A stretch of 64,000 nucleotides of DNA from a virus: IMG/VR virus record IMGVR_UViG_3300025732_000018; one strand, given 5' to 3'. The position numbers and the translations under genes were made by a program. The first letter of the stretch is position 1. Every line of letters begins with the position of its first letter. Below are positions 1,726 through 36,677 of this stretch, piece after piece. Under the pieces are notes generated by a model, which worked only from the letters and a program-made list of their open reading frames with translations, did no database searches and was not told the origin of the DNA.

Positions 1726-2208
1726 ATGCCAAACTACGCACACGTTGAGAACGACCAGATCCAGAGGCTGTACGACGTTGTCCCTACCGCGTGGAGAAAC
1801 GTGAGCGGCCTCGACAAGCTCAGCGACGAGGAGCTAGTCGACTACGGCTGGTACAGGATACAGAAGCAAGACGTAAGCTTCGACGCGGCGACTCACTACG
1901 CCACCTACGACTACTCCTACGACTCGGCCGACGACGTCGTCAGAGAGACGACCGTCATTCATGAGAAGGTCGCGCCCTCCATCGAGGAGGCAAAGCCGGC
2001 GTTCCTGCGCTTTCTTAGAGAGGTGAGGAACGAGAAGCTAGCCGAGACAGACTTCACCCAGCTGGCAGACGTAGTAGCCAGGTCCACTCCGGAGCAGAAC
2101 CAGGCCTGGGCAGACTACAGGCAGGCCCTGAGGGATCTACCGGAGCAGTACGCCACAAACGACGTAATAAATATCCAGAACGTCGAGTGGCCTTCTAAAC
2201 CGGAATGA
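1726..2208 (+). CDS. Tail fibre assembly chaperone-like protein 1
   Basis: C-terminal LREVRNEKLAETDFTQLAD...WADYRQALRDLP...WPSKP motif typical of phage tail assembly chaperones; directly follows the fibre gene. Confidence 0.8.
   Translation: MPNYAHVENDQIQRLYDVVPTAWRNVSGLDKLSDEELVDYGWYRIQKQDVSFDAATHYATYDYSYDSADDVVRETTVIHEKVAPSIEEAKPAFLRFLREVRNEKLAETDFTQLADVVARSTPEQNQAWADYRQALRDLPEQYATNDVINIQNVEWPSKPE
2166..2173 (+). promoter_or_regulatory. Possible T4-type late promoter (AATAAATA) for the giant RCC1 gene
   Basis: NATAAATA motif 45 nt upstream of ATG 2219. Confidence 0.45.
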
Positions 2209-8200: not shown

Positions 8201-9931
8201 TACGTGGCCTCTGGTCAGAACACAGTGATAGCCATCGGAGACTACGGTCAAGTAGTCTACGCCTGGGGTTACAGGCCGGGGGCTTTTTCTATCAATAGCA
8301 CCTCTTCTCCAGTAGCGCTGTTCGCGCCTAACTTCTCGGCTAAAGAGCTCGCTCCGAGCATGCTCGGCTCACACACGATGGTGCTGTCGACTGCCGGGTC
8401 TCTCTACGCCATCGGCGCTGGAAAGGACGGAGCGTTCGGAGACGGACTGACTACTACGTCGGCGTACGTTCCGATCAAGATAGACAACGGCACCTGGAAG
8501 AAGATAGCCACGGGCAACTCGCACACGCTCGGTCTAAAGACTGACAGCACTCTGTGGGCATGGGGCCTTAACACGTCGGGACAGCTGGGGATACAGGACG
8601 CTACAACGAGAAGTTCTCCGGTACAGGTCATGGCTGGAAAGAGCTTCACTGCGATAAGTGCCGGAGCGACTGGTTTCTCGCAAGTCATCGATCAGAACGG
8701 AATCATGTGGGGATTCGGTTTACCTACCAACGGCGTGCTCGGCATATCATCAACGGTCTCAAATAGATCAATGCCGGTAACCGTCGGTGAAGACTGGTCT
8801 ATCATTTCTACGGGAGGGTCGCACACGGCGGCGATAGACAGTGAAGGAGGTCTTTGGGTCTGGGGAACAAACTCATTTGGTTCACTCGGCGTTAATGACA
8901 CCATCGCTAGAAACGTAGTGACTAAGATTGGTACTTCTAGTTGGGTGTTCGTCACTTGCGCAGTCAACAGTACTATGGGAATCACCGCCGACGGCAAGCT
9001 TTATGCTTGGGGAAGGAACAGTAACGCAAACCTCGGCGTCGGAGACACGCTAGATAGGTCGTCGCCTGTACAAGTCACGAGCAGCGTCAGCAGCTGGAAG
9101 TTCGTAAGCACTATGGACGACGTGTCGTTTGGAATCGCGTCAGATGGAACTCTCTGGTCGTGGGGATCTGGAGCTAAGGGAACTCTTGGAGACGGAAGTG
9201 CTACTCTTACTAGATCCGCCCCGAACCAGATCTCGACAAGCAACTGGACAGTAGTTCGATCTTCGTATGGAAGTAGCAACAACGGCTACGGAATCACTGC
9301 CAGCGGAGACCTGTACGCTTGGGGCAACGGAGCCGGCGGAGCTATACCTCTCAACGCTTCTACAGGAGACAGGTCATATCCAACTCTTATATCTAGCGGG
9401 TGGTGGGCTAACGTCAACGCTCTTGCAGCACCGAACAACGGCGTCGGAGTGGCCATCAAGTCAGATCGTACTCTCTGGGTGTGGGGCTCACCAAACAACG
9501 TTGCTGTACTCGGCCTGAACAGCGCGACCAACAACAGAAGCTCGCCGACTCAGATTGGAACGAGTTCGTGGTCTGCAGTCACCGGTCAGCTGACTCAGGT
9601 AGCGGCTATCGACGTCGACGGTCGTCTGTTCATGTGGGGGGCAAACGCAAGCGGCATACTAGGAAACAACGATACACTTACTAGGTCGTCACCGACTCAG
9701 GTCACGGGTTCACTTAGCTACACGATGGTTACAATCGCAGCCGCGTACACGCACGGAATACAAGCAGTCACAAAAGACAGGTACTACTGGGGAGCCTCTA
9801 ATGCTGCGTATAGCGGACTTGGTACCGGTATAGCAAGAAGCAACCCAACGTTCGTTGCAGAGGGAAAGATAGGAAGCTGGACAGCAGTAAACGCAGGGTA
9901 CGACTCGGTTCTTGCCACGAAGACCGTATAA
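2219..9931 (+). CDS. Giant RCC1/BLIP-II repeat beta-propeller protein (2570 aa), putative adhesin
   Basis: Dozens of ~50-aa repeats: (IK)SDGTLWAWGxNxxGQLG...NRSSPVQIGTSSW. Confidence 0.85.
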   Translation: MLIFQSLLAPAATSSPVVVTPYPLYGWGVNTTGKLGINNNTTQSYPVQVLSGTSWKSFSTAFNHSLGVKSDGTLWAWGGNASGELGINVKSGRRTSLDKFDNSSWTMIKTDNQHTVGLKSDGSLWAWGVNSSGQLGTNDVVTRSSPVQIGTSSWTSVDAGANFTVALKVGGTLWAWGLGTGGQLGISAATSRSSPTQVGALTTWSKVSAGSAAVIASTSDNYAYVWGTGLMQAANDGFVLVRSSPVAVAFQPFDGALSAAGIFQSTILIDKQYRLWAWGGNTYSGLAPGILGTNDTFDRSSPVLVSSTGSWTMISGKSNSFAAIKSDGSLWTWGYNAQGQLGTGDTKNRSSPTQIGTSSWSMVSTGTYFMAAININGQVFCWGSGGQGSLGNNAAIDRSSPVQLASTSSFNVVSVGNFHALARTINNKLWAWGINNYGQLGASLGVTAARSSPVAIGTTTSWTAISAGSDHSAGITSAGSLWTWGSNGLGALGNSSTINRSSPIQVGAATTWTKVEGGVDYTLAMTESAGTATVYHFGQNAGRAGNGTTATTSSPVAVYTTAGTPKLITSFSGGSTYIISPDDTIIGTGENVLYSLALVDSPLANTTVWKIVGHSPPGTINSVAMGTVHGAVVANNKLYGLGLNDFGQLGAGTTISRSRAVLVDSSKTWSTIDTGYYASMGITSDGKLWSWGNNTQGQLGLGDIVDRSSPTQVGSSSWTVVSLSKASAGPVFAAGVTTDGKLWGWGRNYDYLPLGFLGDTAVLTNRSAPVQIGSATNWTSVSVEGQQTSSTNDALIVGVNSLGEAYWQGNGTDFAINDANRVSPVQIGTDTDWESVAAGGGVALLAHSFAIKTNKTLWSWGSNYWGNLGLGLANNVDRSSPTQVTAGPTNGSWSAVAGGYNFDYGIDTSGKLWAWGYNYTGGGLGLGVGDVTNYTAPQLVTKQRSFTLASAPYVAGGGNFGATVIDSLNNEAWSWGGGTSGVTGLGVTTTYYSPTLVPSTSWRVISSGSDFAVGVKADGTLWSWGGNVNGQLGKNSTVGSLTPAQIMTGSSFTTVSAAEYRAYAISTAGQLFAWGYNSAGNAWNDGNARSSPVQIGSSSWSAIASGHKHDVALTVDGSMYAWGDNAAGQHGLNDDLYISRSSPTLVATSISKVFAGNACTSYIDGLSRLFYAGNDIAGGAGRSGPFFNPVVGYMNEPFNETLGAAAGSWTMVAFGYYPGFESSYTTALGVKSDGSLWAWGNNNAGTIGDGTTVNRFRNPQKIGSSSWSFVAVNNQVAAAIDTAGRLFTWGVNTDGKLGQNSVASRSSPVQVAGSWNFVAIGQSSVAAIKTDSTLWTWGGNANGQLGVSDTINRSSPVQVAGAWVMVAFSGAQSNESKSMIGIKTNGQVYTWGLGSIQNSYLGGSIGARNEVYGIDRSSPVSIGAPLTYTGISATTVSASDYGVSLIRMSDGNLLTWGYGGFGSHGHSDQINRSWPTVVGQTLSWSVLSMGVDHVAAVRSDGSLWSWGLNSDGRLGTNDTNNRSSPVQIGSLTNWSDVSAGNGHTLARKTDGTLWAWGSNGQGRLGDGTTINKSSPIQIGTSSWSAISAGYTTSAGISAFRLFVWGDDGLGRLGLNTSNVHQSSPVQLGTSSWSAVSVGEPHMLAIRTDGALFAWGGDAGYGCLGLDISTSRSSPIQVGTSSWSQVSAGYYGSMGITTATSLWAWGSNSQGRLGVGDVRNRSVPTQVGALTGWTALGKTIVTEVNTAIRGSALYAMGAVDAITGDRSSPVLVGVGDWKNSCTTQYYHLAIYNKTMILTEGHVNTPYVLGNNSTTTNSWNTSSRTIMEGTKGHRAYPDGPWSNNSHMLYGTTKAVKTDGTLWAWGDNSLYQIATKDNVSRSSPTQIGTATSWRTTSVAVRALGASILGELDTTGKVWTWGIGNYAGSMVNPLQSFTQIPGSWSMVSYARQDYSTQAGIKTDGTLWTWGYGQSGSTGLGSTTARSSPTQVGTKNDWTYVASGQNTVIAIGDYGQVVYAWGYRPGAFSINSTSSPVALFAPNFSAKELAPSMLGSHTMVLSTAGSLYAIGAGKDGAFGDGLTTTSAYVPIKIDNGTWKKIATGNSHTLGLKTDSTLWAWGLNTSGQLGIQDATTRSSPVQVMAGKSFTAISAGATGFSQVIDQNGIMWGFGLPTNGVLGISSTVSNRSMPVTVGEDWSIISTGGSHTAAIDSEGGLWVWGTNSFGSLGVNDTIARNVVTKIGTSSWVFVTCAVNSTMGITADGKLYAWGRNSNANLGVGDTLDRSSPVQVTSSVSSWKFVSTMDDVSFGIASDGTLWSWGSGAKGTLGDGSATLTRSAPNQISTSNWTVVRSSYGSSNNGYGITASGDLYAWGNGAGGAIPLNASTGDRSYPTLISSGWWANVNALAAPNNGVGVAIKSDRTLWVWGSPNNVAVLGLNSATNNRSSPTQIGTSSWSAVTGQLTQVAAIDVDGRLFMWGANASGILGNNDTLTRSSPTQVTGSLSYTMVTIAAAYTHGIQAVTKDRYYWGASNAAYSGLGTGIARSNPTFVAEGKIGSWTAVNAGYDSVLATKTV

Positions 9932-9937
9932 TAAATA
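9930..9937 (+). promoter_or_regulatory. T4-type late promoter (AATAAATA) for the glycosyltransferase genes
   Basis: NATAAATA overlapping the upstream stop codon, about 35 nt before ATG 9972. Confidence 0.6.
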
Positions 9938-9971
9938 CACGCGAGTCGTAATTCTACAACATGGAGTAGAC

Positions 9972-11705
9972 ATGCACAAGATTGACATGCAACTGAAGCT
10001 TATGCTCGACGGAAGGTTCGACGAGGCTTGGCAACTCTCAGAGGAGATGCAGGCGATCGGGCCAGAGAACCTCCTCGATGCGCGCGGTCAAAAGAACCCA
10101 GAGATGTGGGTCAGACACAGCTTCAACCGAGGCTGGTTCCTCCTTCAGCAGAACAAGTACAAAGAGGGGTGCCAGCTCCTTGAGAACGGTCGCTTCATCA
10201 AGGTCTACGGCAGCCCACCGATGAAGACTACGGCTCCTCTCTTCAACCCAGAGGAGCACGACGTCAAGGGTAAGTCGATAATCATCTCGCTCGAGGGAGG
10301 ATACGGCGACGAGATGATCCACGCTCGCTTCGCTACTTCGTTCAAGAACCTCGGCGCGGAGAACGTCTACCTCGCGGCGGACCCGTCGCTTCACTCTATC
10401 TTAGAGCGCATAGACGGCGTGACCAAGTGCATAACGCGAGCCGAGGCGCACACGGTTCACCACGACTACTGGCTTCCTGGCTTCTCGGCGGGGTGGTTGT
10501 CTGGTCATACGTTCGACGACTTCCCTGGAAAACCTTACCTCACCGCGAAGCCAGAGTCGGTCGATATGTGGAAGAGCGTCCTCAACTCTGACAAGAAGAA
10601 GGTCGGCATCCGCTGGGCAGGCAACCCGAAGTTCGAGCACCAGCAGTTCAGGCGCTTCCCAGAGAAGTTCATGACCCAGATGTCAGAGTACGAGGGCCTG
10701 CAGCTCTACTCCCTCCAGAGAGACAACAACGTTATCGAGCTTCCCGAGAAGATCATCGACCTCCAGCACCTACTGATCTCGTGGGAGGACACCGCCGCGG
10801 CGATCATGAACCTAGACCTAGTGATCACCTCATGTACCTCAGTGGCGCATCTCTCTGCAGCTTTGGGCAAGGAGACGTGGGTGATGGTGCCGATCCTCCC
10901 CTACCACACCTGGACACTGAACGCTCCGTACTCGACTTCCTCACCTTACTACGAGAGCGTCAGACTCTATCGACAAGAGAAGAAGAGCGAGTGGAACCAA
11001 CCGTTTCAGCGTCTCTACGCAGACCTCGAGAGAAAGTTTGACCTTCCTCACCTAGACCTCCCTACACAAGACAAGGAGGTCAAAAGGTTAAACCTCGGGT
11101 GCGGCTTCAAGAAGCACGAAGGATTCGTTAACGTCGACGCCTCGAGCATATGCTCACCGGATCAGGTCGTAGACCTCAACAGCAAGACGTGGCCGTGGAA
11201 GGACGACGAGTTCAGTCACGTCATAGCCAAGGACATCCTTGAGCACCTCGGTCACTCCGGCGTCAAGTTTGAGGACATCATCAAGGAGATGTACAGGGTC
11301 TCTGACAACGGGGCAGTCTGGGAGGTTCAGTTCCCTCACTGGAACTGCGACATAGCCAAGTCAGACCCGGAGCACGTTCGACTGCTGACCATCGACACCT
11401 TCAAGCTCTTCGACAAGAAGCGTTGCTACGAGAAGGCTGTGGCTGGTGAGACCGACTCGTACCACGCTTTCACGCACGACGTGGACATCGAGGTTCTCGA
11501 GCACGCGCTGGAGTTCACCGGTGAGCTGCAGAAGATGATAGACTCCGGACAGATAGGTGAGGGTGAGCTCGAGCACGCCATCAACCACCTGAACAACACG
11601 GTGCTGTCAGTGAAGCTTCTCATTCAGGTCCACAAGCCTGGAAGACACGACCGTCAGGAGTTGGACCGCGAGCTAAGGAAGGCAGCCCTCCATGGATCTA
11701 TCTAA
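9972..11705 (+). CDS. TPR-like/GT-B (GT9-like) glycosyltransferase fused to a C-terminal SAM-methyltransferase-like domain
   Basis: EGGYGDEMIHARF, KVGIRWAGNP and DTAAAIMNLDLVITSCTSVAHLSAALGK (TPR-GT9-type motifs). C-terminal RLNLGCG...VNVD...EHL. Start moved to ATG 9972, which has a GGAG SD. Confidence 0.75.
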   Translation: MHKIDMQLKLMLDGRFDEAWQLSEEMQAIGPENLLDARGQKNPEMWVRHSFNRGWFLLQQNKYKEGCQLLENGRFIKVYGSPPMKTTAPLFNPEEHDVKGKSIIISLEGGYGDEMIHARFATSFKNLGAENVYLAADPSLHSILERIDGVTKCITRAEAHTVHHDYWLPGFSAGWLSGHTFDDFPGKPYLTAKPESVDMWKSVLNSDKKKVGIRWAGNPKFEHQQFRRFPEKFMTQMSEYEGLQLYSLQRDNNVIELPEKIIDLQHLLISWEDTAAAIMNLDLVITSCTSVAHLSAALGKETWVMVPILPYHTWTLNAPYSTSSPYYESVRLYRQEKKSEWNQPFQRLYADLERKFDLPHLDLPTQDKEVKRLNLGCGFKKHEGFVNVDASSICSPDQVVDLNSKTWPWKDDEFSHVIAKDILEHLGHSGVKFEDIIKEMYRVSDNGAVWEVQFPHWNCDIAKSDPEHVRLLTIDTFKLFDKKRCYEKAVAGETDSYHAFTHDVDIEVLEHALEFTGELQKMIDSGQIGEGELEHAINHLNNTVLSVKLLIQVHKPGRHDRQELDRELRKAALHGSI

Positions 11706-12399
11706 GTCTCTAAACTTCGGGTATGATACCTCGGTAGAGTCAGCCTACATCATCACGATCAAAGACCACTCCGAGTCAGAGAGACTAGCCAAGGGATGTC
11801 AGCGATCTTGCGACATAGCCGGCATGCCGTGGAAGACATGGGACGCCTTCGACGCTACCGACGGCAAGACCATAAAGATACCTGAGCACTCTAAAGACTC
11901 GTCGTGGCTGAAGTGGGTGAAGGTGTACGATCATCACCTATCAATCACCGAGATAGCATGCTTCTTCAGCCACGCTAGCCTCTGGGCGAGGTGTCTCGAG
12001 ATGGACAGGCCGATAGTCATCCTCGAGCACGACGCCATCATGGTCCAGCGCTACCCTCACATGACTGCCTACAACAGCATCGTGTACCTCGGGGGAGAGG
12101 AGCAGAAGAACCACAGGATGCCGGTAGGTCCCGTGCCGCCTCACGGCTCCCTCAACAACAACTATCACTTCATCTGCAGGGCGCACGCCTACGCCATAGA
12201 CCCACCGATGGCCAAGAACCTGCTCGGCACCCTGATCCAGAGGGGCATATGCGAGAGTCTAGACGTCATCATGAGGGCGGACCTCTTCAACATCAGTCAG
12301 GCAGGCCTGTACGCCTACGACAGGTTCGAGGGTACTACGATCGTTAATAGAAAGAAAGACGTCAGCCTCAAGGACGAGAACGTGGGCAATGAGCGGTAG
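11692..12399 (+). CDS. Glycosyltransferase family 25-like protein
   Basis: EIACFFSHASLW...IVILEHDA and AHAYAI motifs of GT25. Confidence 0.75.
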   Translation: MDLSKSLNFGYDTSVESAYIITIKDHSESERLAKGCQRSCDIAGMPWKTWDAFDATDGKTIKIPEHSKDSSWLKWVKVYDHHLSITEIACFFSHASLWARCLEMDRPIVILEHDAIMVQRYPHMTAYNSIVYLGGEEQKNHRMPVGPVPPHGSLNNNYHFICRAHAYAIDPPMAKNLLGTLIQRGICESLDVIMRADLFNISQAGLYAYDRFEGTTIVNRKKDVSLKDENVGNER

Positions 12400-12404
12400 G
12401 TTCT

Positions 12405-12412
12405 TATAAATA
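12405..12412 (+). promoter_or_regulatory. T4-type late promoter TATAAATA
   Basis: Exact consensus, intergenic, upstream of fibre 2. Confidence 0.8.
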
Positions 12413-12451
12413 ACCTAGATTCCCACCAACAACAAATAAGAACGAGCTCAA

Positions 12452-15400
12452 ATGGCCGATACTATCTGGGACTACAGCGGTTCAGTACAGGAGCTGATCG
12501 ATCTCTACAACAGCTGGTCTACTCTTCCACTCGAGGAGCAGGCAGCCAAGGAGGGAACTCGGTTTCTTATCACTGGTGACGGCTTTACTAACGGGGCCGG
12601 AGCTTGGTTTGACTGGGGGCTAGACGGCGGTATCATATGGGTCTACAGTATCACACCGTCTTGGTGGGTCTGGTATAATAATGAAAAGGTAACCACGTCA
12701 CCGTTTGGTTCCACTCTACCAGGATACGCAGCTGACGTAGTCTATATGCTTAATGCAGTCGGTCTACCCGGCTCAACTTCGGCATTTCCTTCTAACACCC
12801 CCCGCTACAGCTTCTGGGGAGAAGCCAGAGTACAAGGATATACCGGTTCACGCGGCATGATCGGCTACACTGGTACGATCGGCTTCGCAGGATCTATCGG
12901 TTATGCCGGCTCTCGAGGCTACACTGGCTCGTCAGGCTACACCGGGTCCGCATCTACTTTCCCAGGATACACCGGATCTCAGGGCTACACCGGATCTGCA
13001 ATCGTCGGCTCTCGCGGTTACACCGGGTCTGCGTCTACGGTCATCGGCTACACTGGAAGCATTGGGTACACCGGCTCCAAGGGTGTACAGGGCATTCAAG
13101 GAAACACCGGTTATACCGGATCCGAGGGTCCTCCCAACGGCTACACCGGCTCTAGAGGTAGCACCGGCTACACTGGCTCGGTTGGATACTCTGGAAGCCT
13201 AGGCTACACTGGATCGAGAGGACTGACTGGATTCTCCGGATCTGGCTTCGCCGGCTCTCAGGGATACACTGGCTCACTCGGCTACACGGGCTCACAGGGC
13301 TACAGCGGCTCTGCCGGATTCACCGGATCGGCGTCGACTGCTCCGGGATACACCGGATCTATCGGATACACGGGTTCAGCTGGTTACACCGGCAGCAGGG
13401 GTCTAACAGGCATACAAGGAGACCAAGGTCTTGCTGGCTACACCGGTTCGGTAGGAGAGTCGCTGCAGCCGGACGAGGTCGGACCTCTCTCTGGCAGAAG
13501 TGCTTACGACACTCAAGCTAAAGGATTCGCGTACCTAGCGACCGACACCGACTCCATCTACTATAAGCTCAGCGCTACTTCTGGCGACTGGTCAGACCCT
13601 ATAGCTCTCCTTCGCGGATTCACTGGGTCGCAGGGCTTCACTGGATCTTTTGGATTCACCGGCTCAGTCGGGTTCGTAGGGTCTCTCGGCTACACTGGTA
13701 GCATCGGCTACACTGGATCGATAGGCTACACTGGATCGCAGGGCTTCACCGGGTCTAAGGGATTCACCGGCTCCGCGTCTGAGATTCCTGGTTACAGCGG
13801 TTCTCGCGGCTTCACCGGCTCGGTAGGCTTCGTAGGATCTCAGGGCGTTCAAGGATGGACTGGCTCGCAAGGTCCGCCGGACGGATACACCGGTTCTAGA
13901 GGTTACACCGGCTCACTGGGGTCTCTTGGCTACACCGGCAGCATCGGCTACACCGGATCTCAAGGCATCCGCGGCTACACGGGTTCAGTAGGTTTCGTAG
14001 GTTCTGCCAGCACGACGCCAGGGTACACCGGCTCGAAGGGCGACTCTGGCTACACCGGATCCAAGGGAGACATAGGCTACACCGGTTACACCGGCTCTAA
14101 GGGTGACCCAGACGGATACACTGGATCTACCGGAGCTCAGGGATACACCGGCTCGCGCGGCTTCGGCTACTCCGGAGTTGCTAGCTCGACCAACATAAAC
14201 GCCTCAGGTACTGGTAACAAGACCTGGGTGATGAACCAGTCCTACACGCAGAACGCTTTCGAGCCTGGAATGCGCGTCAGGATGATATGCGTCGACGACC
14301 CGAACGTCTCGAACGAGGGTAACATCGTCAGCTACGTCGGAACCAACTTGACCATCTCGGTCGACGCGGTCGACGGCGCAGGATTCCAGAACAACTGGAT
14401 ACTCGCTGCTACGGGACGCGTCGGATACCTAGGCTACTCAGGATCTAGGGGCTACACCGGCTCGGTAGGATTTACCGGCTCGGTAGGCTTCGTCGGATCG
14501 GTCGGATTCGCTGGGTCTAGGGGATACACCGGATCGCAGGGTGACATCGGTTACACCGGATCTGCCTCTACCGTCGCCGGCCCTCTCGGCTACACGGGCT
14601 CACAGGGCTACAGCGGGTCGAGGGGCGACACCGGAGCTACCGGCTTCGTAGGGTCTCAAGGTGACCTAGGCTACACCGGCTCTCGCGGCTTCGGTGGAAG
14701 TCAGGGTTACGCTGGATCGCGCGGCTTCACTGGATCGATAGGCGACACGGGCTACACCGGATCCGCCTCGTCGACTCCAGGGTACACCGGCTCACTTGGC
14801 TATACCGGGTCTAGAGGATACAACGGAAGCCAGGGCGACATAGGCTACACCGGCAGCCTAGGCTACACGGGATCTCAGGGACCGATCGGCTACGTCGGAT
14901 CTGCTTCTACCGAGATAGGTCCTACGGGATACACCGGTAGCATCGGTTACACTGGATCGAGAGGCTACGCTGGATCGATCGGTGATACTGGATTCACCGG
15001 CTCGTTCGGAACGACAGGCTACACCGGATCGTTTGGGTTTACCGGATCGAAGGGCGACATCGGGTACTCAGGATCTGCGTCTACCGTTCCTGGTTATACG
15101 GGAAGTCTGGGTTACACTGGATCGCAAGGAGACATCGGCTACACCGGTTCAGCCTCTACTGTAGCTGGACCTACTGGTTACTCCGGCTCACAGGGTGACA
15201 TCGGTTACACTGGATCTAAAGGATTCACCGGATCGTTCGGTAACACCGGCTACACCGGCTCTGCTGGTGCGGGATTTACCGGCTCGCAGGGTGACACAGG
15301 CTTCACTGGATCGGGTGGATACACCGGATCGTTCGGATACACCGGGTCGGCTGGATCATTCGTCGTACCAGGTACGAACACACAGGTAGTGTTCAACGAC

Positions 15401-15811
15401 GGCGGTAACGCTAACACCGCGGCTACCTTCGTGTACGACAAGACCAACGGCAGGGTCGGTGTGGGAACTGCCTCGCCGGCGGCCACGATCGACGTGACCG
15501 GAAACTATGGCATGAACATCGTCACTGTCACTGCGTCGGACATCGACTGCTCTCAGGGCAACTACTTCACTAAGACTGCATCTGGAGCTCTGACGTGGAC
15601 CTTCTCTAACGTACCGGCTTCTAGGGCGGTGCTCGTGATCCTCGAGCTCACCAACGGTGGCACCGGAACTCAGACCTGGCCGGCGTCTGTTAAGTGGCCA
15701 GGTGGAACGGCACCAGTTCTAACGGTGTCTGGAGTAGACGTCATAACGTTCCTAACTGACGACAGCGGCACGACGTGGCGCGGTAACCCGACCATGTTGG
15801 ACAGCAAGTAA
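12452..15811 (+). CDS. Collagen-like (GYTGS/GFTGS repeat) tail fibre protein 2
   Basis: Three Gly-X-Y blocks separated by globular inserts; C-terminal domain paralogous to fibre 1. Confidence 0.8.
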   Translation: MADTIWDYSGSVQELIDLYNSWSTLPLEEQAAKEGTRFLITGDGFTNGAGAWFDWGLDGGIIWVYSITPSWWVWYNNEKVTTSPFGSTLPGYAADVVYMLNAVGLPGSTSAFPSNTPRYSFWGEARVQGYTGSRGMIGYTGTIGFAGSIGYAGSRGYTGSSGYTGSASTFPGYTGSQGYTGSAIVGSRGYTGSASTVIGYTGSIGYTGSKGVQGIQGNTGYTGSEGPPNGYTGSRGSTGYTGSVGYSGSLGYTGSRGLTGFSGSGFAGSQGYTGSLGYTGSQGYSGSAGFTGSASTAPGYTGSIGYTGSAGYTGSRGLTGIQGDQGLAGYTGSVGESLQPDEVGPLSGRSAYDTQAKGFAYLATDTDSIYYKLSATSGDWSDPIALLRGFTGSQGFTGSFGFTGSVGFVGSLGYTGSIGYTGSIGYTGSQGFTGSKGFTGSASEIPGYSGSRGFTGSVGFVGSQGVQGWTGSQGPPDGYTGSRGYTGSLGSLGYTGSIGYTGSQGIRGYTGSVGFVGSASTTPGYTGSKGDSGYTGSKGDIGYTGYTGSKGDPDGYTGSTGAQGYTGSRGFGYSGVASSTNINASGTGNKTWVMNQSYTQNAFEPGMRVRMICVDDPNVSNEGNIVSYVGTNLTISVDAVDGAGFQNNWILAATGRVGYLGYSGSRGYTGSVGFTGSVGFVGSVGFAGSRGYTGSQGDIGYTGSASTVAGPLGYTGSQGYSGSRGDTGATGFVGSQGDLGYTGSRGFGGSQGYAGSRGFTGSIGDTGYTGSASSTPGYTGSLGYTGSRGYNGSQGDIGYTGSLGYTGSQGPIGYVGSASTEIGPTGYTGSIGYTGSRGYAGSIGDTGFTGSFGTTGYTGSFGFTGSKGDIGYSGSASTVPGYTGSLGYTGSQGDIGYTGSASTVAGPTGYSGSQGDIGYTGSKGFTGSFGNTGYTGSAGAGFTGSQGDTGFTGSGGYTGSFGYTGSAGSFVVPGTNTQVVFNDGGNANTAATFVYDKTNGRVGVGTASPAATIDVTGNYGMNIVTVTASDIDCSQGNYFTKTASGALTWTFSNVPASRAVLVILELTNGGTGTQTWPASVKWPGGTAPVLTVSGVDVITFLTDDSGTTWRGNPTMLDSK

Positions 15812-15823
15812 CAGGTAGAAGAG

Positions 15824-16321
15824 ATGGCTAGATACGCTTACGTAGATAACAACGAGATAGTAGAGCTAGTAGATCAGCTACCGAAGAGCTGGAAGAACTA
15901 CAGCAACTTTGATCTTATGGACCCTCAGTCCCTATTCGAGCTGGGTTGGCTTCCGGTCGACGAGTCTCAGGTAGTCGTACCCCCGTTCAACGGACTAGCA
16001 GAGAGAGCCGTAGTCAACTACGAGATCACTCCGTCTGGTGTTAGAGCGTTCGTGACGATAGTTCCTCATGACTCGACGTCGGAGCAGGAGGTCAGACAGG
16101 CCTACATGGCCGCTCTGAGAGACAGAAGAAACTCGAAGCTGCAGCAGTGTGACTGGACTGTGCTTCCCGACTCCATAGAGTCTAGAGGACAGCAGTGGAA
16201 GGAGCAGTGGGCCTCCTACAGGCAGACGCTGAGAGACTTTCCGTCGTTCTACGAGACAGTTCCTCTCAGCGATCTACCGGACATCGACTCTATTCTATGG
16301 CCTATTCCCCCAGCGGTTTAA
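15824..16321 (+). CDS. Tail fibre assembly chaperone-like protein 2
   Basis: LRDRRNSKLQQCDWTVLPD...WASYRQTLRDFP; paralog of 1726..2208, including the N-terminus. Confidence 0.8.
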   Translation: MARYAYVDNNEIVELVDQLPKSWKNYSNFDLMDPQSLFELGWLPVDESQVVVPPFNGLAERAVVNYEITPSGVRAFVTIVPHDSTSEQEVRQAYMAALRDRRNSKLQQCDWTVLPDSIESRGQQWKEQWASYRQTLRDFPSFYETVPLSDLPDIDSILWPIPPAV

Positions 16322-16337
16322 TATCGAGAACTAACAG

Positions 16338-18701
16338 ATGCTGATCCTTGGCTCAGGAATTATGAGAAAGAAAGTTCAGAGTGACTCTCTGTTCGGGGCC
16401 GGCTATAGTACTTGGTATAGTCTCGGAAACAGCTTTGATGGTGCTAGAAGCTCTCCAGTCGCGGTGACTGCAGCCGGAAACCCTCTGATCTACAAGTCTT
16501 GGAAGACTGTTACTGGAACTAACGGAAACACCGCGGCGTTAAACAGCGTCGGAGAGCTCTACGTCTGGGGTGACAATAACTTTGGACAGTGGGGAAACAA
16601 GACTGCAGGAAATACGAGTCTAGCTCAGCCTGGATTTGACAGAGCGACGCATAGGTCTAGCCCTACGCTGGTTCCCTCTACAGGAAGTTGGACAGTAATT
16701 TCTGTCGGAGGTTACTCGGGGGAAGAGTATAGAGAAGTATGCAATACTGGAATCTACGACCCTAGCGCTCACGTTGCAGGGATCAAGTCAGACGGGACTC
16801 TCTGGACCTGGGGTTACGGGATCTACGGTAAGCTTGGAGCTGGAAACACTTTTAGCAGGTCTTCTCCTACTCAGCTTGGAACTAAGACTGACTGGGTAGA
16901 CGTTGCGTGCGGACCGGAGTTTACGATAGCGTGCGACTCTGCGGGTGACTTGTACGCGTGGGGACACAACTACAGAGGTCAGCTCGGTGACGGAACTACT
17001 ATCGACAGGTCTTCACCGGTCCTCGTGTCCTCAGTTAGAAACTACACCAAGGTCTACGCATCTGGGATGAAGTCGTTCGCAGTCGACGACACTAATCAGT
17101 TGTACTGGGCAGGAGCCGGAGCGAACGCTACATCCCTTGGATACTATCCGACATCAATCGACTCATTGACTCACTCGTCAGTAACCCTTGGAAACAACTT
17201 CTCTAGCGGTTCGATGGGTCCTCAGCACGGTCTGTTCATAAAGACTACCGGCGCTCTATACGCGGCTGGAATCAACGACTACGGGCAGCTTGGTCTCAAC
17301 GACACTTTCAGCAGGTCGAGCTTTGTTCAAGTAGGAGCTGGAACCAACTGGTCAACCGTTATAGTGTCAGCCAGCCACACGCTAGCTCTCAACAACACCG
17401 GGTCTCTGTTCGTCTGGGGAAGAAATAACTACGGACAGCTTGGACTCGGCGACGTCGTGAACAGGTCTTCTCCGACTCTTCTGTCCACCGGCGTCTCTTA
17501 CGTAATGGCTGCTGGATATAACACCTTCTACGTTAAGACCGACGGTACCCTGTGGGCCGTCGGAACCGAGAGATCTGGTCAGCTAGGTAATCAAGACTTA
17601 CTGCTTGACTTTGACACACCACACATCAACAGATCTTCTCCGATTCAGATAGGCTCCGGATTCACGTCTAACATCTTTGGAAAGTCTAACTATCGCGGGG
17701 CTGGAGCTAAGAGCTATATAAACGACGGAAAGCTCTACATGTGGGGTGTCAACGGATACGCGGCTGCGGACGACAACGCTACGAGTTGGACACCATACAA
17801 AAACTTCTGGCTTATGGAGACGAACAGACTCTTCACCAAGGTGCCCGGATCATGGAGTGCTGTATCCATGGGAACTGAGTACGCAGTAGCTATCAAGTCA
17901 GATGGGACCCTATGGTCTTGGGGATCTAATGCATCTTATGGACAGCTTGGAATCAACCTTACTAGCGCAGCAGGAAACAACGGCAGAAGCATACCAGTTC
18001 TAGTATCAAGCGACACGACCTGGAAGAAAGTTCAGGCTGGATTTGGCGGAGCTCTAGCTCTAAAGGGAGCTAGCAGCCCATACAGCCTCTACGGCTGGGG
18101 ATACTACTACATCACGGGTCAGAACAGTTCTATAAACAGAAGCTCTCCGGTGATCATTGGAGCGGCAAACAACTGGAAAGACATAGGCTTCAGTGAGAAT
18201 AGTCTGACGGTCTACGCCGTGGATAAGAACGACAACATCTACGTGTGGGGATACAACAACGTAGGACAGCTAGGCTTAAGCGACACGATCGATCGCTTCA
18301 GTCCTGTGCTACTTGCTACAGGTCAAGCAGGGGCAAAGGTGCAGGCCGGACAGGATCACGGACATATAATTAAGTCCGACGGCTCGCTGTGGTCCACTGG
18401 AAGCAGCGCCTACGGACAGACCGCTCTCGGCTACACTAACGTTTCTAGCTTCACTCAGGTCGGAAGCTCCTCTTGGACAGCGGTAAGCGCCGGCCAGCAA
18501 CACTCTCTAGGCATAGACGCGGCTGGTCGCCTTTTTGCCTGGGGAAGAAACAACTACGGGCAGCTGATGGGTCCGTCTCCAAACATTATCACCTACACGT
18601 ACTCGACGGTTCAAGTCGGGTCTGGCGCTTACGGAAGTTGGACTCTCGTTCGTGCAGCGAGAGACAGCTCGTTCGCCTCAGCTAAGGTAGACATTACTTA
18701 A
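16338..18701 (+). CDS. RCC1/BLIP-II repeat protein 2 (787 aa)
   Basis: Repeats of LYAWGxNxxGQLG...DRSSP. Confidence 0.85.
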   Translation: MLILGSGIMRKKVQSDSLFGAGYSTWYSLGNSFDGARSSPVAVTAAGNPLIYKSWKTVTGTNGNTAALNSVGELYVWGDNNFGQWGNKTAGNTSLAQPGFDRATHRSSPTLVPSTGSWTVISVGGYSGEEYREVCNTGIYDPSAHVAGIKSDGTLWTWGYGIYGKLGAGNTFSRSSPTQLGTKTDWVDVACGPEFTIACDSAGDLYAWGHNYRGQLGDGTTIDRSSPVLVSSVRNYTKVYASGMKSFAVDDTNQLYWAGAGANATSLGYYPTSIDSLTHSSVTLGNNFSSGSMGPQHGLFIKTTGALYAAGINDYGQLGLNDTFSRSSFVQVGAGTNWSTVIVSASHTLALNNTGSLFVWGRNNYGQLGLGDVVNRSSPTLLSTGVSYVMAAGYNTFYVKTDGTLWAVGTERSGQLGNQDLLLDFDTPHINRSSPIQIGSGFTSNIFGKSNYRGAGAKSYINDGKLYMWGVNGYAAADDNATSWTPYKNFWLMETNRLFTKVPGSWSAVSMGTEYAVAIKSDGTLWSWGSNASYGQLGINLTSAAGNNGRSIPVLVSSDTTWKKVQAGFGGALALKGASSPYSLYGWGYYYITGQNSSINRSSPVIIGAANNWKDIGFSENSLTVYAVDKNDNIYVWGYNNVGQLGLSDTIDRFSPVLLATGQAGAKVQAGQDHGHIIKSDGSLWSTGSSAYGQTALGYTNVSSFTQVGSSSWTAVSAGQQHSLGIDAAGRLFAWGRNNYGQLMGPSPNIITYTYSTVQVGSGAYGSWTLVRAARDSSFASAKVDIT

Positions 18702-19473
18702 TCAAGTCGTTGTAGTTGTACTGCGCGCTCGTGAAGTACTGATACTTTCCCTGTAGCTTCAAGGGAAACTTGATTCTCTCTATTCTAGCGCCGGTCCTGC
18801 TAGCTATCGACTCAGCCACCTCTGTGAAGCTCTTAGGCGCAGCAGTACCTACGTCGTAGATTCCTGACTCTTTCTTGCACTCTAGGATAGTCTTCACGAC
18901 GCTGTTGACATGTATAAAGTCACGGTGAGCGCTGTCAGAGTTGTCGAAGATCTTTATGACTCTTGTCTCGTTCGCCTGCTGCATGAACTTGTAGTATGGA
19001 CTCGCCTGCTCCCCCTTCGACCCCTCGTTGTCACCGTACACATTGAAAAACCTCATCCCCCTCACGAGCTTGAACCTGCTCATGTTGTCCTCGACCCAGG
19101 CGTCGACGGTAGCCTTGGTCATGGCGTAGTAGTTAAGCGGGTTTATCCTGTACTGCTTTCCCTCACATGTGTTGCCATAGACCGACCCAGAGCTCGCGTA
19201 TGTGACCGGGATCTGGTAGTCGATCGCCTTCTCAAAGAGCCTGATGCTGAAGTCCACGTTGTGCGCGTGCAAGAGGTTAATGTCCTTGCAGGTCGTGTCT
19301 GATATTGCTCCGAGGTGATAGATCTCGTCGACGTTCTCCCACTCTATCGCGTCTAGGATGGTAAAGATGTCTGGGAGAGTGTTCGTCAGCGTGTCGTAGC
19401 AGGCGACCTGACCGTCAAGCTTTGCCAGCAGGTTCCTTCCAATGAATCCACAGTTACCGGTGACAAACTTCAT
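18694..19473 (-). CDS. hldD: ADP-L-glycero-D-manno-heptose 6-epimerase-like SDR
   Basis: TGNCGFIG, HLGAISDT, YASSGSVYG, YYAMTK and RFFNVYGDNEGSKGEQAS, matching HldD/RfaD motifs. Confidence 0.8.
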   Translation of the reverse strand: MKFVTGNCGFIGRNLLAKLDGQVACYDTLTNTLPDIFTILDAIEWENVDEIYHLGAISDTTCKDINLLHAHNVDFSIRLFEKAIDYQIPVTYASSGSVYGNTCEGKQYRINPLNYYAMTKATVDAWVEDNMSRFKLVRGMRFFNVYGDNEGSKGEQASPYYKFMQQANETRVIKIFDNSDSAHRDFIHVNSVVKTILECKKESGIYDVGTAAPKSFTEVAESIASRTGARIERIKFPLKLQGKYQYFTSAQYNYNDLIK

Positions 19474-19789
19474 CTTGGTTGATCTCCCTGTGAGGACCGG
19501 TGAAGTACAGGTCTGCGTTCATGGCCTTGTCGTCTATCCACACGTCGTACGACGGCTTCTTCATCTTCAAGCTAGTGTACCTGCAGCCCCACTCGTGAAG
19601 CTGTCTCTCGGTCAGTTCGCTCCAGTCGATACCAGAGTTTCCGCCGCGCGCGGTCCAGTAGTGGATCTCGTGACCCCAGTCGTACAGCATGTTGAAGTGG
19701 TTGATCCTATCCTTGATGGGCTCGCTCCTCGTGTAGTCAGACCCCTTGGTCCTGCATATGGTCCCGTCGATGTCGACCATGTACCTCAT
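19454..19789 (-). CDS. Small HAD-family phosphatase (possible GmhB analogue)
   Basis: DIDGT motif I, WTAR and KPSYDVWIDDKA. Confidence 0.7.
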   Translation of the reverse strand: MRYMVDIDGTICRTKGSDYTRSEPIKDRINHFNMLYDWGHEIHYWTARGGNSGIDWSELTERQLHEWGCRYTSLKMKKPSYDVWIDDKAMNADLYFTGPHREINQDEVCHR

Positions 19790-20145
19790 CGCTGAGAGTC
19801 TCCTGGCATCACGCGGTAGTTGTCGGCCGGATCGTCCTGACTTGACACCTCGAAGATGGAGGAGTCGTCCTCTAGAGCCTCGAGCTGGTGAACGAAGCCT
19901 GGCATCACACGCACCACGTGACCCATGACGATAGTCTCTTCTTTGATCTGGGCTGTAGACTGGTCTATGGTTCTAAGGTTGAAAGACCCAGTCACCACCA
20001 TGAAGGTCTCGTCCTTCTTCATGTGATAGTGCATGCTTCCCTTTGAGCCCGCCTTGTCAAACTGAAGTATCTTACCACAGTACAGCTCGTTTGAGGCAAA
20101 TATGATCTCTCTTCCCCATCCTTTTTCTACCGTCTGTCTACTCAT
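19786..20145 (-). CDS. Cupin-fold sugar isomerase-like protein
   Basis: VEKGWGRE, SMHYHMKKDETF and PGFVHQLEA cupin metal motifs. Confidence 0.75.
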   Translation of the reverse strand: MSRQTVEKGWGREIIFASNELYCGKILQFDKAGSKGSMHYHMKKDETFMVVTGSFNLRTIDQSTAQIKEETIVMGHVVRVMPGFVHQLEALEDDSSIFEVSSQDDPADNYRVMPGDSQR

Positions 20146-21307
20146 TTCTCATCTTCTCCACGATGTCAGTAGTCGAGAAACCCTCGACGAGTGGTATGAT
20201 TATAACTTCAGCTAGATCGTTGCCTACTACGGTAGACACCTGATAGTCGCCTCCCTTGGTGATGATTGACGGCTGTACGCTCTTGATTAGCTCGAGCGGA
20301 GTGTCCTCATCGAAGATGATCACCTCGTCGACCCACTTGATCGCCTCGAGTGCGGCCTTCCTAGACTCCTGGTCATTGATGGGTCTGCACATTCCTTTAA
20401 GCCTGCGAACGCTCTCGTCGCTGTTGATCCCCACTACGAGTCTGTCTCCCATGTCGCGAGACTTCTTAAGTAACTCGATGTGCCCACGGTGCAGGATGTC
20501 GAAGCAGCCGTTGGTGAAGACTACCTTAGGACGCGCCTTAGCTATGTCCTCGGCAGTAAGCTTGTACGTGCCGAAGCGAGTGACTGATATCGTGGCCAGG
20601 GTGGTGGCCTGATGAAGCGCCGTGGCGAGATCCTTTCCTGCAGCCAGAGCTGATACCATTCCGGCAGTCACCACGTCTCCCGCTCCAGTGACGTCGGCCA
20701 CCTCTACCTTCTCGGTCGGGAAGTGTCCAACTGACCCGTCCTTGCTATAGGTGTATATTCCGTCGGATCCAGCCGTCACCACTAGGTTCTCGATGTCATA
20801 GTACTTTAAGACGTCGAGTGCCTCATAACCCTCGACGCCACTCTTCTTGAGTTCCTGCTTGTTCATCTTGACCATCCAGGCTCCGGAGCACTCTTGCAGG
20901 ACTCCCTTGGTATCTACGATAACGCGACTCCCTCTCTCGCTGTAGTACTCGATCAGATCTTCTACTGAAGTGATTGTGCCCTTTAGATAGTCTACCAAGA
21001 CGACGTAGTCGTAGTGCTTGTCAGACTTAAATGAGCTTGTCGGGTGACTGTCGGTGGCGTCGTCGTCACACCTGAAGACTATCTTGTTGTCGCAGACGTA
21101 CCGAGTCTTAAACGAGGTGCTACCCGTCATGATGTCGGGTCTACACCCTAGAGCCTTGAGGTTCTCGTATACGTTGTATACCCCTCCAGACTTACTGGTC
21201 TCTCTGATCTGATAGAAGATTGGGATAGGAGCCTCGGCAGAGACCCTCTCGGTTCCACAGTAGACGTATCGGTCTAGTATGGCGTCTCCGATCACTAGAA
21301 CATTCAT
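20138..21307 (-). CDS. hldE: Bifunctional heptose-7-phosphate kinase / heptose-1-phosphate adenylyltransferase
   Basis: VIGDAILDRY...RVSAEAPIP, ribokinase DVTGAGD, then FTNGCFDILHRGH and KGGDY...STT. SD AAGGTG precedes ATG 21307. Confidence 0.88.
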   Translation of the reverse strand: MNVLVIGDAILDRYVYCGTERVSAEAPIPIFYQIRETSKSGGVYNVYENLKALGCRPDIMTGSTSFKTRYVCDNKIVFRCDDDATDSHPTSSFKSDKHYDYVVLVDYLKGTITSVEDLIEYYSERGSRVIVDTKGVLQECSGAWMVKMNKQELKKSGVEGYEALDVLKYYDIENLVVTAGSDGIYTYSKDGSVGHFPTEKVEVADVTGAGDVVTAGMVSALAAGKDLATALHQATTLATISVTRFGTYKLTAEDIAKARPKVVFTNGCFDILHRGHIELLKKSRDMGDRLVVGINSDESVRRLKGMCRPINDQESRKAALEAIKWVDEVIIFDEDTPLELIKSVQPSIITKGGDYQVSTVVGNDLAEVIIIPLVEGFSTTDIVEKMRNE

Positions 21308-21318
21308 GTCGCTCACCT

Positions 21319-21326
21319 TATAAATA
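21319..21326 (+). promoter_or_regulatory. Late promoter TATAAATA for the gp13 operon
   Basis: Exact consensus about 40 nt upstream of gp13. Confidence 0.8.
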
Positions 21327-21335
21327 CCACGGATC

Positions 21336-21343
21336 TATTTATC
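21336..21343 (-). promoter_or_regulatory. Late promoter GATAAATA for the heptose operon
   Basis: Plus-strand TATTTATC; the same GATAAATA variant precedes gp18 and gp67. Confidence 0.65.
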
Positions 21344-21363: not shown

Positions 21364-22101
21364 ATGGCCGTTCCCACTACCAGAGAAGAGTTCAAGCTCA
21401 ACTGCCTCCGCCGCTGCGGTTACCCAGTTATCGAGATCAACGTCGACGACGACCAGATAGAGGACCGAATCGACGAGGCCCTGTCTAAGTACTGGGACTA
21501 CCATTTTGACGGTACAGAAAAATTATACTACAAGTACGAGCTAACGTCAACTGATATTGATAACCAGTACATAACTATTCCTGAGAACATCATCGGGGTG
21601 GTCAACCTCTTTGACATCGGAAGCTCGCTCAGTACCAACAACCTGTTCAACATCAGGTACCAGATAGCCCTGAACGACCTCTACACGCTGACCTCGACCA
21701 GCATGGTCCCGTACTACATGGCCATGCAGCACATCCAGCACCTGGAGCAGCTCTTAGTAGGAAAGCAGCCGATCAGGTACAACCGCCACAGGAACAGGCT
21801 CCACATCGACATGGACTGGAAGAAGGTGGACGTCGGTTACTTCATCGTCGCCGAGTGCTACCAGATCGTAGACCCGACCGAGTTCACCAACGTCTGGAAA
21901 GACACCTGGCTCCAGAAGTACGCGGCGGCCCTCATCAAGAGGCAGTGGGGAACCAACCTGACCAAGTTCAGCGGAATGGTCTTGCCAGGTGGCGTGACCT
22001 TCAACGGCGAGAAGATCTACGACGACGCAAACGCGGCGGTAGAGAAGATAGAGGCCGAGCTTCTAGACTACTCGCTTCCAGTCTCAGACATGATAGGCTG
22101 A
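21364..22101 (+). CDS. gp13: Neck protein gp13
   Basis: CLRRCGYPVIEINVDDDQIEDRIDEAL, KRQWGTNLTKF and LPGGVTFNG; T4 synteny. Confidence 0.92.
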   Translation: MAVPTTREEFKLNCLRRCGYPVIEINVDDDQIEDRIDEALSKYWDYHFDGTEKLYYKYELTSTDIDNQYITIPENIIGVVNLFDIGSSLSTNNLFNIRYQIALNDLYTLTSTSMVPYYMAMQHIQHLEQLLVGKQPIRYNRHRNRLHIDMDWKKVDVGYFIVAECYQIVDPTEFTNVWKDTWLQKYAAALIKRQWGTNLTKFSGMVLPGGVTFNGEKIYDDANAAVEKIEAELLDYSLPVSDMIG

Positions 22102-36649: not shown

Positions 36650-36677
36650 ATTATAAGAGCTCTGGAAATAATGTCAA
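36650..36677 (-). promoter_or_regulatory. Sigma70-like early promoter, copy 3
   Basis: TTGACA-16-TATAAT. Confidence 0.7.

Follow-up and report, generated by a model that had tools for sequence, protein, structure and literature searches.

A candidate late protein-glycosylating cassette and a separable ADP-heptose operon in the fibre region of an aquatic T4-like phage

The window analysed here is the whole 64,000-nucleotide stretch of the IMG/VR virus record IMGVR_UViG_3300025732_000018, from an uncultured freshwater T4-like phage, and the genes under study form a block of sugar-related functions in its fibre region, immediately 5′ of gp13. A first-pass annotation, made from the sequence alone, had proposed this block as one late system by which the phage makes ADP-heptose and attaches the heptose to its own fibres or adhesins. 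We found that the heptose (hld) operon is a module separable from a core cassette composed of an RCC1-repeat gene, a fusion gene encoding a GT9-like glycosyltransferase joined to a methyltransferase, and a GT25 glycosyltransferase gene. Our preferred reading, put forward tentatively and at somewhat less than an even chance, is that the core cassette is a late protein-glycosylating system whose acceptor is the RCC1-repeat protein, and that the ADP-heptose operon is accessory to it.

According to this proposal, for which we infer acceptor, donor and timing, the cassette would be transcribed late along with the fibre genes. Before assembly, and in the cytoplasm, its two soluble enzymes would most likely attach a short glycan, in part O-methylated, to one of the phage's structural proteins. 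The best candidate acceptor would be the RCC1-repeat protein encoded directly upstream, and not specifically the collagen-like fibres with GYTGS repeats. The N-terminal helical domain of the fusion enzyme would hold the protein substrate, as tetratricopeptide repeat (TPR) domains do in FlmG-type enzymes, and the donor of the GT9-like domain would probably be a nucleotide sugar supplied by every host, not ADP-heptose. HldE, HAD, HldD and the metal cupin of the operon would make ADP-heptose from sedoheptulose 7-phosphate, with the cupin either substituting for the missing GmhA isomerase or further epimerising the nucleotide sugar. Expression of the operon would probably start from an early promoter and continue late. 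In this phage the GT9-like enzyme could still be the transferase that consumes its heptose.

The RCC1-repeat gene, the fusion gene and GT25 form a conserved cassette

The fusion gene (9972 to 11705, plus strand) and the GT25 gene (11692 to 12399, plus strand) lie between two fibre triads, an arrangement that the first-pass annotation had described and that fold, Pfam and PHROG assignments bear out. Upstream of them is the gene of a giant RCC1-repeat protein of 2570 aa (2219 to 9931, plus strand; PHROG 7220/4219, E <=1e-175), the conserved upstream neighbour of the GT9-like gene. The conservation of this arrangement was evaluated in 80 IMG/VR loci centred on the fusion gene, with 10-kb flanks. 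GT25 follows the fusion gene in 63 of the 80 loci, and an RCC1-repeat open reading frame (ORF), often many kb long, ends just 5′ of the fusion gene in 55 of the 64 loci with enough upstream sequence. GYTGS units or long Gly-X-Y runs were found only in a 94%-identical relative and in a few other loci. Since the RCC1 neighbour is kept and GYTGS is rare, the stable partner of the fusion gene is the RCC1-repeat protein and not a collagen-like fibre. Members of the fusion protein family occupy a fixed place in the host-recognition region of aquatic T4-like phages, which is otherwise hypervariable.

Two cultured phages carry the cassette. In BUCT-ZZ01 the order is fibre gene, chaperone-like gene, RCC1/BNR protein gene and fusion gene, the last two encoding UTS52180 and UTS52179. 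The enzyme of S-SRM01 is only 31% identical, yet the TPR/GT9-like gene again stands directly after an RCC1 gene in the tail-fibre module, the pair being gp337/gp338. This S-SRM01 module (L168, 2981 to 16756) interleaves three RCC1 proteins with the TPR/GT9-like protein, a 2-oxoglutarate (2OG) oxygenase, a sulfotransferase, a beta-1,4-glycosyltransferase and an epimerase, and suggests a broader theme in which RCC1 proteins are accompanied by modifying enzymes. Some relatives extend the cassette on one strand with extra methyltransferases, GT2, Glf and hld genes. One of these loci, L015, encodes a UDP-galactopyranose mutase (Glf; 15846 to 16850, plus strand) in a fibre-region glycan island, between the fusion gene/GT25 pair and the heptose genes; because of this location, galactofuranose in these phages may serve a glycan instead of, or as well as, DNA.

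The GT25 protein (235 aa) matched PF01755 with 54.2 bits against a cut-off of 24 (E 2.3e-14). Its gene overlaps the fusion-gene stop by 14 nucleotides, and the motifs CFxSHxSLW and EHD are conserved across 43 orthologues. The GT25 family includes animal collagen galactosyltransferases. As a general explanation, however, a collagen glycosyltransferase was dropped, collagen-like repeats being absent from about 70 of the 80 cassette loci.

The fusion protein has a GT9-like fold and a Cys in place of a heptose-contacting Asp

Translation of the fusion gene most likely starts at ATG 9972, with GGAG 8 nucleotides upstream, and not at TTG 9912 of the ORF list. The protein of 577 aa, described from a structure model, homology and alignment, comprises N-terminal helical hairpins (residues 3 to 76), a GT9-like GT-B domain (residues 83 to 358, nucleotides 10218 to 11045, plus strand; fold and homology) and a class I S-adenosylmethionine (SAM) methyltransferase domain (residues 368 to 558, nucleotides 11073 to 11645, plus strand). 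Its AlphaFold model was built with 30 homologues and had a pLDDT (predicted local distance difference test) of 86. Pfam recognized neither GT9 nor TPR in the protein, PF01075 giving no match even at E 10, and the profile of the fusion family searched against PDB sequences returned weak methyltransferase matches only and no GT9. Structural comparison of residues 83 to 358 gave the Veillonella GT9 protein 3tov (Z 17.5), WaaF (1psw; 17.0), TibC (16.3) and WaaC (15.4; 2h1f 15.5) as matches, the best non-GT9 GT-B fold reached Z 11.3, and Foldseek paired the model with GT9 heptosyltransferases at E 3e-6. Stand-alone relatives at 30–36% identity carry PF01075, which was matched by 11 of 17 aligned relatives (29–36% identical). 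On this structural and transitive evidence, the assignment of a GT9-like domain to the modelled protein holds.

The TPR part announced by the first-pass annotation stood in part. Four N-terminal helices, arranged as two hairpins, are present in the model, but Pfam finds no TPR there; bacterial relatives have true TPR arrays ahead of the same glycosyltransferase domain. The methyltransferase domain was recognized by PHROG 6636 (E 1e-15), by a class I fold with Z 11–13.5 to many methyltransferases and by an LNLGCG motif; Pfam Methyltransf_11 gave only E 0.13.

Alignment with WaaC/WaaF (CAZy GT9, PF01075), which are among the best structural matches (Z 15.4–17.5), shows that the catalytic Asp, the phosphate/heptose Lys and the His are kept: D113 corresponds to the catalytic base D13 of the N-terminal GD motif, K220 to K192 and H293 to H266. 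In contrast, C288 occupies the position of WaaC Asp261, the phage clade having TSCTS where bacterial PF01075-positive relatives have VDTS. In WaaC, hydrogen bonds to the hydroxyls of the heptose have been reported for Lys192, Asp261 and His266 (bioRxiv 10.1101/2021.06.16.448588). Residues D113, K220, Q249, C288, T289 and H293 are invariant in 54 of 54 distinct orthologues, whether hld genes are nearby or not, and the invariance of D113, K220 and H293 predicts that the enzyme is probably active. No column of the pocket separated hld-positive from hld-negative fusion proteins; the best separators were variable methyltransferase positions. Compared with WaaC/WaaF, the N-terminal, acceptor half is trimmed by about 60–90 residues, and gaps in the alignment face the basic segments that bind lipid A-Kdo in WaaC (bioRxiv 10.1101/2021.06.16.448588); the alignment is least certain in this part. 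The window protein thus differs from WaaC/WaaF in falling below PF01075, in its much shorter acceptor half and in the invariant Cys, and further in being fused to N-terminal helices and a methyltransferase and encoded in a phage fibre module.

The family comprises more than 2900 metagenomic proteins with identities above about 55%, the best 120 of which are about 59–88% identical over their full length, and the closest cultured relative of the fusion protein belongs to a freshwater Synechococcus myovirus of the Kyanoviridae. A second, diverged paralogue of the whole protein or of one domain (24–34% identity) was observed 2–5 kb downstream in loci L009, L039-L042, L049, L061, L064-L066 and L076.

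The heptose operon encodes a probable ADP-heptose-type pathway with a cupin

The operon is transcribed from the minus strand in the order hldE, cupin, HAD and hldD; it converges on an RCC1 gene and diverges from gp13. The order given by the first-pass annotation was confirmed, and the ADP-heptose type of the pathway was supported. HldE (20138 to 21307, minus strand; 389 aa) is a putative bifunctional heptose kinase/adenylyltransferase (NF008454, E 3e-83) with the fused PfkB and CTP_transf_like architecture: both Pfam domains pass, and the protein scores 280 bits with NF008454 (cut-off 521) and 174 bits with TIGR02199 (cut-off 181.5). The cupin, a metal-type monocupin of 119 aa (19786 to 20145, minus strand), is an integral member of the module according to profile, model and synteny. 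It is followed by a minimal HAD phosphatase of 111 aa (19454 to 19789, minus strand; DxDGT motif, PHROG 1238 E 4e-26), for which a GmhB role is proposed, and by a shortened HldD-like ADP-heptose 6-epimerase of 259 aa (18694 to 19473, minus strand; TIGR02197 E 5e-55, 186.8 bits, cut-off 274.6), a short-chain dehydrogenase/reductase (SDR) with its GxxGxxG and YxxxK motifs. HldE, the HAD and the HldD-like protein are all shortened and score below the curated equivalog cut-offs.

The enterobacterial route to ADP-L-glycero-beta-D-manno-heptose (GmhA, HldE, GmhB, HldD) likewise has a fused PfkB kinase/adenylyltransferase, a HAD phosphatase and an SDR 6-epimerase. The phage module differs from it in the size and scores of its proteins, in the lack of a SIS-type GmhA and in the invariable presence of the metal cupin. 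A Pfam and library scan revealed no SIS-type GmhA (TIGR00441) in the block, and none was detected in the complete genomes of S-T4, S-CAM1 and P-TIM68, in AG-345-E08 or in the L063 contig, with a positive E. coli control. The HxH...E...H metal motif of the cupin is invariant and its model has a pLDDT of 94; the best fold matches, the CapF cupin domain (Z 15.4), phosphomannose isomerase (14.5), lyxose isomerase (13.4) and also KdgF, are effectively tied. We slightly favour the cupin as the missing sedoheptulose-7-phosphate isomerase over a nucleotide-sugar epimerase that works with the SDR. As the isomerase, it would complete the five-step pathway with five proteins. No literature on cupin-type heptose isomerases in phages was found.

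Public labels of the HAD and cupin proteins look wrong for these folds and mask the absence of GmhA. The PHROG 1238 label "phosphoheptose isomerase" does not fit a HAD fold; following PHROG 1238 and 7851, the records of P-TIM68 (L002), S-T4 (L085) and S-CAM1 (L086) name the HAD "phosphoheptose isomerase" and the cupin "cysteine dioxygenase".

The heptose module and the cassette often occur apart

Of the 80 cassette loci, about 25 (about 30%) have heptose genes no more than 10 kb away from the fusion gene, in at least seven layouts. On the tree of the fusion protein, hld presence requires at least 7 changes over 27 labelled tips, and five cassette-bearing contigs of 80–137 kb have hldE and hldD nowhere. 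The complete genomes of BUCT-ZZ01 and S-SRM01 contain neither hldE nor the cupin, the cupin profile being positive in S-T4, S-CAM1 and P-TIM68 as a control. Conversely, a profile search of these three hld-bearing genomes detected no GT9-like domain. The five complete cultured cyanophage genomes thus have the hld module or the fusion gene, never both.

A scan centred on the cupin yielded at least 585 viral contigs, 80 loci of which were kept for neighbour counts. The cupin adjoins hldE in 77 and hldD in 74 of these loci, and gp15 lies within 10 kb in 34. Within the same distance, a GT9-like gene was found in 8 of the 80 (72 without) and GT25 in a single one. The hld module is therefore a widespread T4-like module, usually beside gp13-15. 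It corresponds to the kinase, nucleotidyltransferase, HAD, cupin and epimerase genes of the cyanophage "LPS gene clusters" (LPS, lipopolysaccharide; PMC2984593) in P-SSM2, S-CAM1, S-SSM7, P-TIM68 and S-T4, phages that, unlike the window, are devoid of the GT9-like/methyltransferase cassette.

A common layout, as in L093 (6007 to 18944), runs gp15, NUDIX hydrolase, hldE, hldD, cupin, full-size HAD and 2OG-Fe(II) oxygenase, with no glycosyltransferase nearby, and ends at the convergent gene of a 2475-aa virion structural protein. Such a layout, together with the early-type promoter match at the hld operon of the window (see below), would suit a role unrelated to virion or envelope glycans, in which the heptose operon serves, for example, DNA modification or a soluble metabolite and is merely parked in the variable region by gp13-15. 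However, no base-modifying or DNA-glycosylating enzyme adjoins the operon in the window, and the module stands beside structural genes in many lineages, such as the giant virion structural protein just mentioned and a tail fibre in S-CAM1. We regard such a role as very improbable.

The LPS cores of cyanobacteria reportedly contain no heptose (PMC4390846). Given this report and the lack of hld genes in BUCT-ZZ01 and S-SRM01, the fusion enzyme of these two phages probably has no ADP-heptose to use, and the near-identical pocket of the window enzyme then probably takes another donor. These observations bear on the central proposal of the first-pass annotation, a chain in which ADP-heptose made late by the phage is transferred by the fusion enzyme, in the manner of AAH/TibC, as heptose or methyl-heptose to Ser/Thr of the GYTGS fibres. 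Structural comparison places TibC (Z 16.3; root-mean-square deviation 3.0 over 249 residues) among the top matches, tied with the LPS heptosyltransferases; TibC and AAH, of a GT9-related GT-B fold, are soluble enzymes that glycosylate repetitive Ser-rich proteins in the cytoplasm. The fibres of the window offer 51 and 24 Ser/Thr-rich GYTGS units, hld genes recur beside the cassette, at times in one operon-like array, and late motifs stand ahead of all units. Against the chain, GYTGS or collagen-like repeats occur in few related loci only, the heptose-contacting Asp261 is a Cys in 54 of 54 orthologues with no pocket column that tracks hld, and an early-type promoter match lies upstream of hld. 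Moreover, the window has no autotransporter, and co-occurrence does not support ADP-heptose as the donor: GYTGS fibres, hldE/hldD and GT9-like genes, whose joint occurrence had been proposed as a check, are mostly found apart in the counts given above, and the five cultured genomes never combine hld and cassette. Heptosylation of the GYTGS fibres by the fusion enzyme was thus not supported, and we consider the chain as a whole quite improbable.

Late and early promoter motifs

In T4-like cyanophages the element NATAAATA has been published as the late promoter (PMC2984593), and such motifs stand ahead of each unit of the block. The fusion gene is preceded by AATAAATA (9930 to 9937, plus strand), 34 nucleotides before ATG 9972, and fibre B by TATAAATA (12405 to 12412, plus strand). 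A late-promoter-type GATAAATA (21336 to 21343, minus strand) lies 28 nucleotides before the hldE ATG, face to face with the TATAAATA (21319 to 21326, plus strand) that precedes gp13 (ATG 21364). The late motifs ahead of both fibre regions and the heptose operon's own motif, at 21343 to 21336, had been noted in the first-pass annotation, and the motif scan supports both statements. The window contains 17 copies of ATAAATA where 2.3 are expected; none of 100 shuffles reached 17, and 10 of the copies are 17–50 nucleotides upstream of ORF starts. Elements resembling TATAAATA at 20–50 nucleotides from late-gene starts, which define the T4-type late promoter, are thus present here. In relatives, exact ATAAATA was found upstream of 27 of 74 fusion-gene orthologues and 22 of 28 gp13 genes, compared with 1.9% of random stretches.

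At 11/12 or better, the window contains 10 sigma-70-type matches, compared with 0.1 in random sequence of equal composition. Nine have the form TTGACA-17-TATxxT: eight of them, on the plus strand of the non-structural region (38764 to 60590), behave like early promoters and are probably those of this phage, and one is at 36677 on the minus strand. The tenth match, TTGACG-17-TATAAT (11/12; 21522 to 21550, minus strand), absent from the first-pass annotation, points into the hld operon and stands about 215 nucleotides upstream of hldE, antisense within gp13, and both of its hexamers are kept in the relative L003. Given this early-type match and the late motif, the heptose operon is probably served by two promoters, one early and one late, as has been described for cyanophage "middle" genes (PMC2984593), and it is likely to be expressed early. 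The late synthesis of ADP-heptose proposed at first is consistent with the motif at hldE; early expression of the operon, which the first-pass annotation had named as refuting its view, is predicted by the strong early-type match. Upstream of the cassette no sigma-70-type match of at least 11/12 was found; the cassette has the late motif only.

The RCC1 gene on the plus strand and hldD on the minus strand overlap tail-to-tail by 8 nucleotides (18694 to 18701), with no terminator-like hairpin between them, so that late fibre-gene transcription would run head-on into that of the hld operon.

Phage protein or host envelope as the acceptor

The acceptor of the two glycosyltransferases could be sought in the host envelope: GT9-like, GT25 and the ADP-heptose operon would then alter LPS or another surface glycan, blocking superinfection or keeping progeny from sticking to debris. 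Both GT9 and GT25 are families of the LPS/lipooligosaccharide (LOS) core, the glycosyltransferase and rfaE genes of cyanophages and pelagimyophages are read in the literature as envelope remodelling (PMC2984593, PMC7029224, PMC12801897), and the hld operon has its early-type promoter match. Several features of the cassette do not fit this explanation. It has late motifs only and is embedded in the fibre module, downstream of a giant gene of the structural region; its acceptor half is without the lipid A-Kdo-binding segments of WaaC, and its relatives have TPR-type, protein-binding N-termini. ORF and Pfam inspection of the block revealed no flippase, ligase or membrane protein. Furthermore, cyanophages carry the hld module even though the LPS cores of their hosts are reported heptose-free. 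Envelope remodelling is nevertheless a serious rival, possible if somewhat unlikely.

The virion-directed role that the first-pass annotation had preferred to LPS remodelling is favoured by the GT9-like fold, the ADP-heptose-type pathway, the structural-region position and the late motifs, as well as by the heptose-free LPS cores just mentioned (PMC4390846). Several features make a phage protein plausible as acceptor: the cassette lies in the fibre module behind late motifs, the fusion protein has helices at its N-terminus, a shortened acceptor half and a methyltransferase joined to it, and other systems provide precedents. Glycosyltransferases encoded near structural genes by mycobacteriophages reportedly decorate capsid and tail proteins (Freeman et al. 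2023, as cited in PMC12801897). These belong to other glycosyltransferase families and hosts, with no such nucleotide-sugar pathway. The flagellin O-glycosyltransferase FlmG combines TPR and GT-B (PMC7591256). Its architecture resembles that of the fusion protein, with an N-terminal helical-repeat domain followed by GT-B, and FlmG is soluble and binds its protein substrate through the TPR; the window protein, however, has two helical hairpins only, and the donor of FlmG is pseudaminic acid. The PBCV-1 protein A064R, a GT-GT-methyltransferase protein building the capsid glycan (PMC9614988), is likewise a viral multidomain enzyme that joins glycosyltransferase to class I methyltransferase and both builds and methylates a glycan on a virion protein. 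It differs in its glycosyltransferase folds, its eukaryotic virus and its early expression, so that the likeness is one of logic and not of homology. DNA modification by the GT9-like enzyme was also considered and ranked low, given the late motifs and the place inside the structural module.

Several points weigh against glycosylation of the RCC1-repeat protein by a cassette independent of heptose. The recurrent proximity of hld genes and cassette may signal a real functional link to heptose: in L063 one strand carries hldE, cupin, hldD, fusion gene and GT25 as an array, in L015 the fusion gene, GT25, two methyltransferases, GT2, two unknowns, Glf and heptose genes, and the marine AG-345-E08 is a further case. 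The argument that the enzymes of BUCT-ZZ01 and S-SRM01 are without ADP-heptose is drawn from phage genomes and the LPS literature. A gene order kept in a structural module can mirror inheritance of the module instead of a pairing of enzyme and substrate, and phage RCC1-like proteins have no established function in the literature (PMC7247149). Glycosylation of a structural protein is a plausible prediction from genes and modelled structures, GT9 and GT25 are classical families of LPS/LOS-core synthesis, and we found no virion proteomics of BUCT-ZZ01 in the literature.

In its broadest form, the preferred reading would state that aquatic T4-like phages put a phage-built methylated glycan on RCC1-repeat, fibre-associated proteins, the first steps being carried out by GT25 and a GT9-derived enzyme that switched its acceptor from LPS core to protein and perhaps its donor too, with the glycan diversified in a third of the lineages by heptose from a phage pathway in which a small metal cupin replaces GmhA. 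This generalization we hold to be unlikely. If the fusion protein family does glycosylate fibre-associated proteins, the most abundant myoviruses of lakes and oceans would join mycobacteriophages and giant viruses in having glycosylated virions, the cyanophage "LPS genes" would have to be reinterpreted, and host range and phage stability would gain a further variable. The heptose module poses a separate biochemical question, that of a cupin as a non-homologous replacement of GmhA. Cultured phages are available for both: the cassette is carried by BUCT-ZZ01 and S-SRM01, and the heptose module with its cupin by several others.

Genes surrounding the cassette and the operon

A megablast of the block against 50,697 phage records gave no match. 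The block contains two triads, each made of a collagen-like fibre, a tail-fibre chaperone and an RCC1-repeat protein according to Pfam and PHROG. The first starts with the C-terminal part of collagen-like tail fibre A (1 to 1713, plus strand), open at its 5′ end, which belongs to PHROG tail-fibre families and in which the 24 GYTGS units were counted; it continues with tail-fibre assembly chaperone A (1726 to 2208, plus strand; PHROG 4912/8716) and ends with the giant RCC1-repeat protein. The second comprises collagen-like tail fibre B (12452 to 15811, plus strand; 1119 aa, 51 GYTGS units; Pfam Collagen E 2e-82 and PHROG tail-fibre families), tail-fibre assembly chaperone B (15824 to 16321, plus strand; PF16778 E 8e-12) and an RCC1-repeat protein of 787 aa (16338 to 18701, plus strand; PF25390/PF00415). 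In the Ser/Thr-rich GYTGS units of the fibres, Thr occupies the Y positions.

The blades of both RCC1 proteins (2219 to 9931 and 16338 to 18701) contain a recurring Ser/Thr-rich motif of the type RSSPTQ(V/I)GTSSW. The giant protein has about nine such stretches, which would form a repetitive candidate acceptor site. From 21364 on, PHROG assigns the ORFs to neck, tail and head genes of T4, arranged as in T4: gp13, gp14, gp15, terminase, sheath, portal and scaffold.

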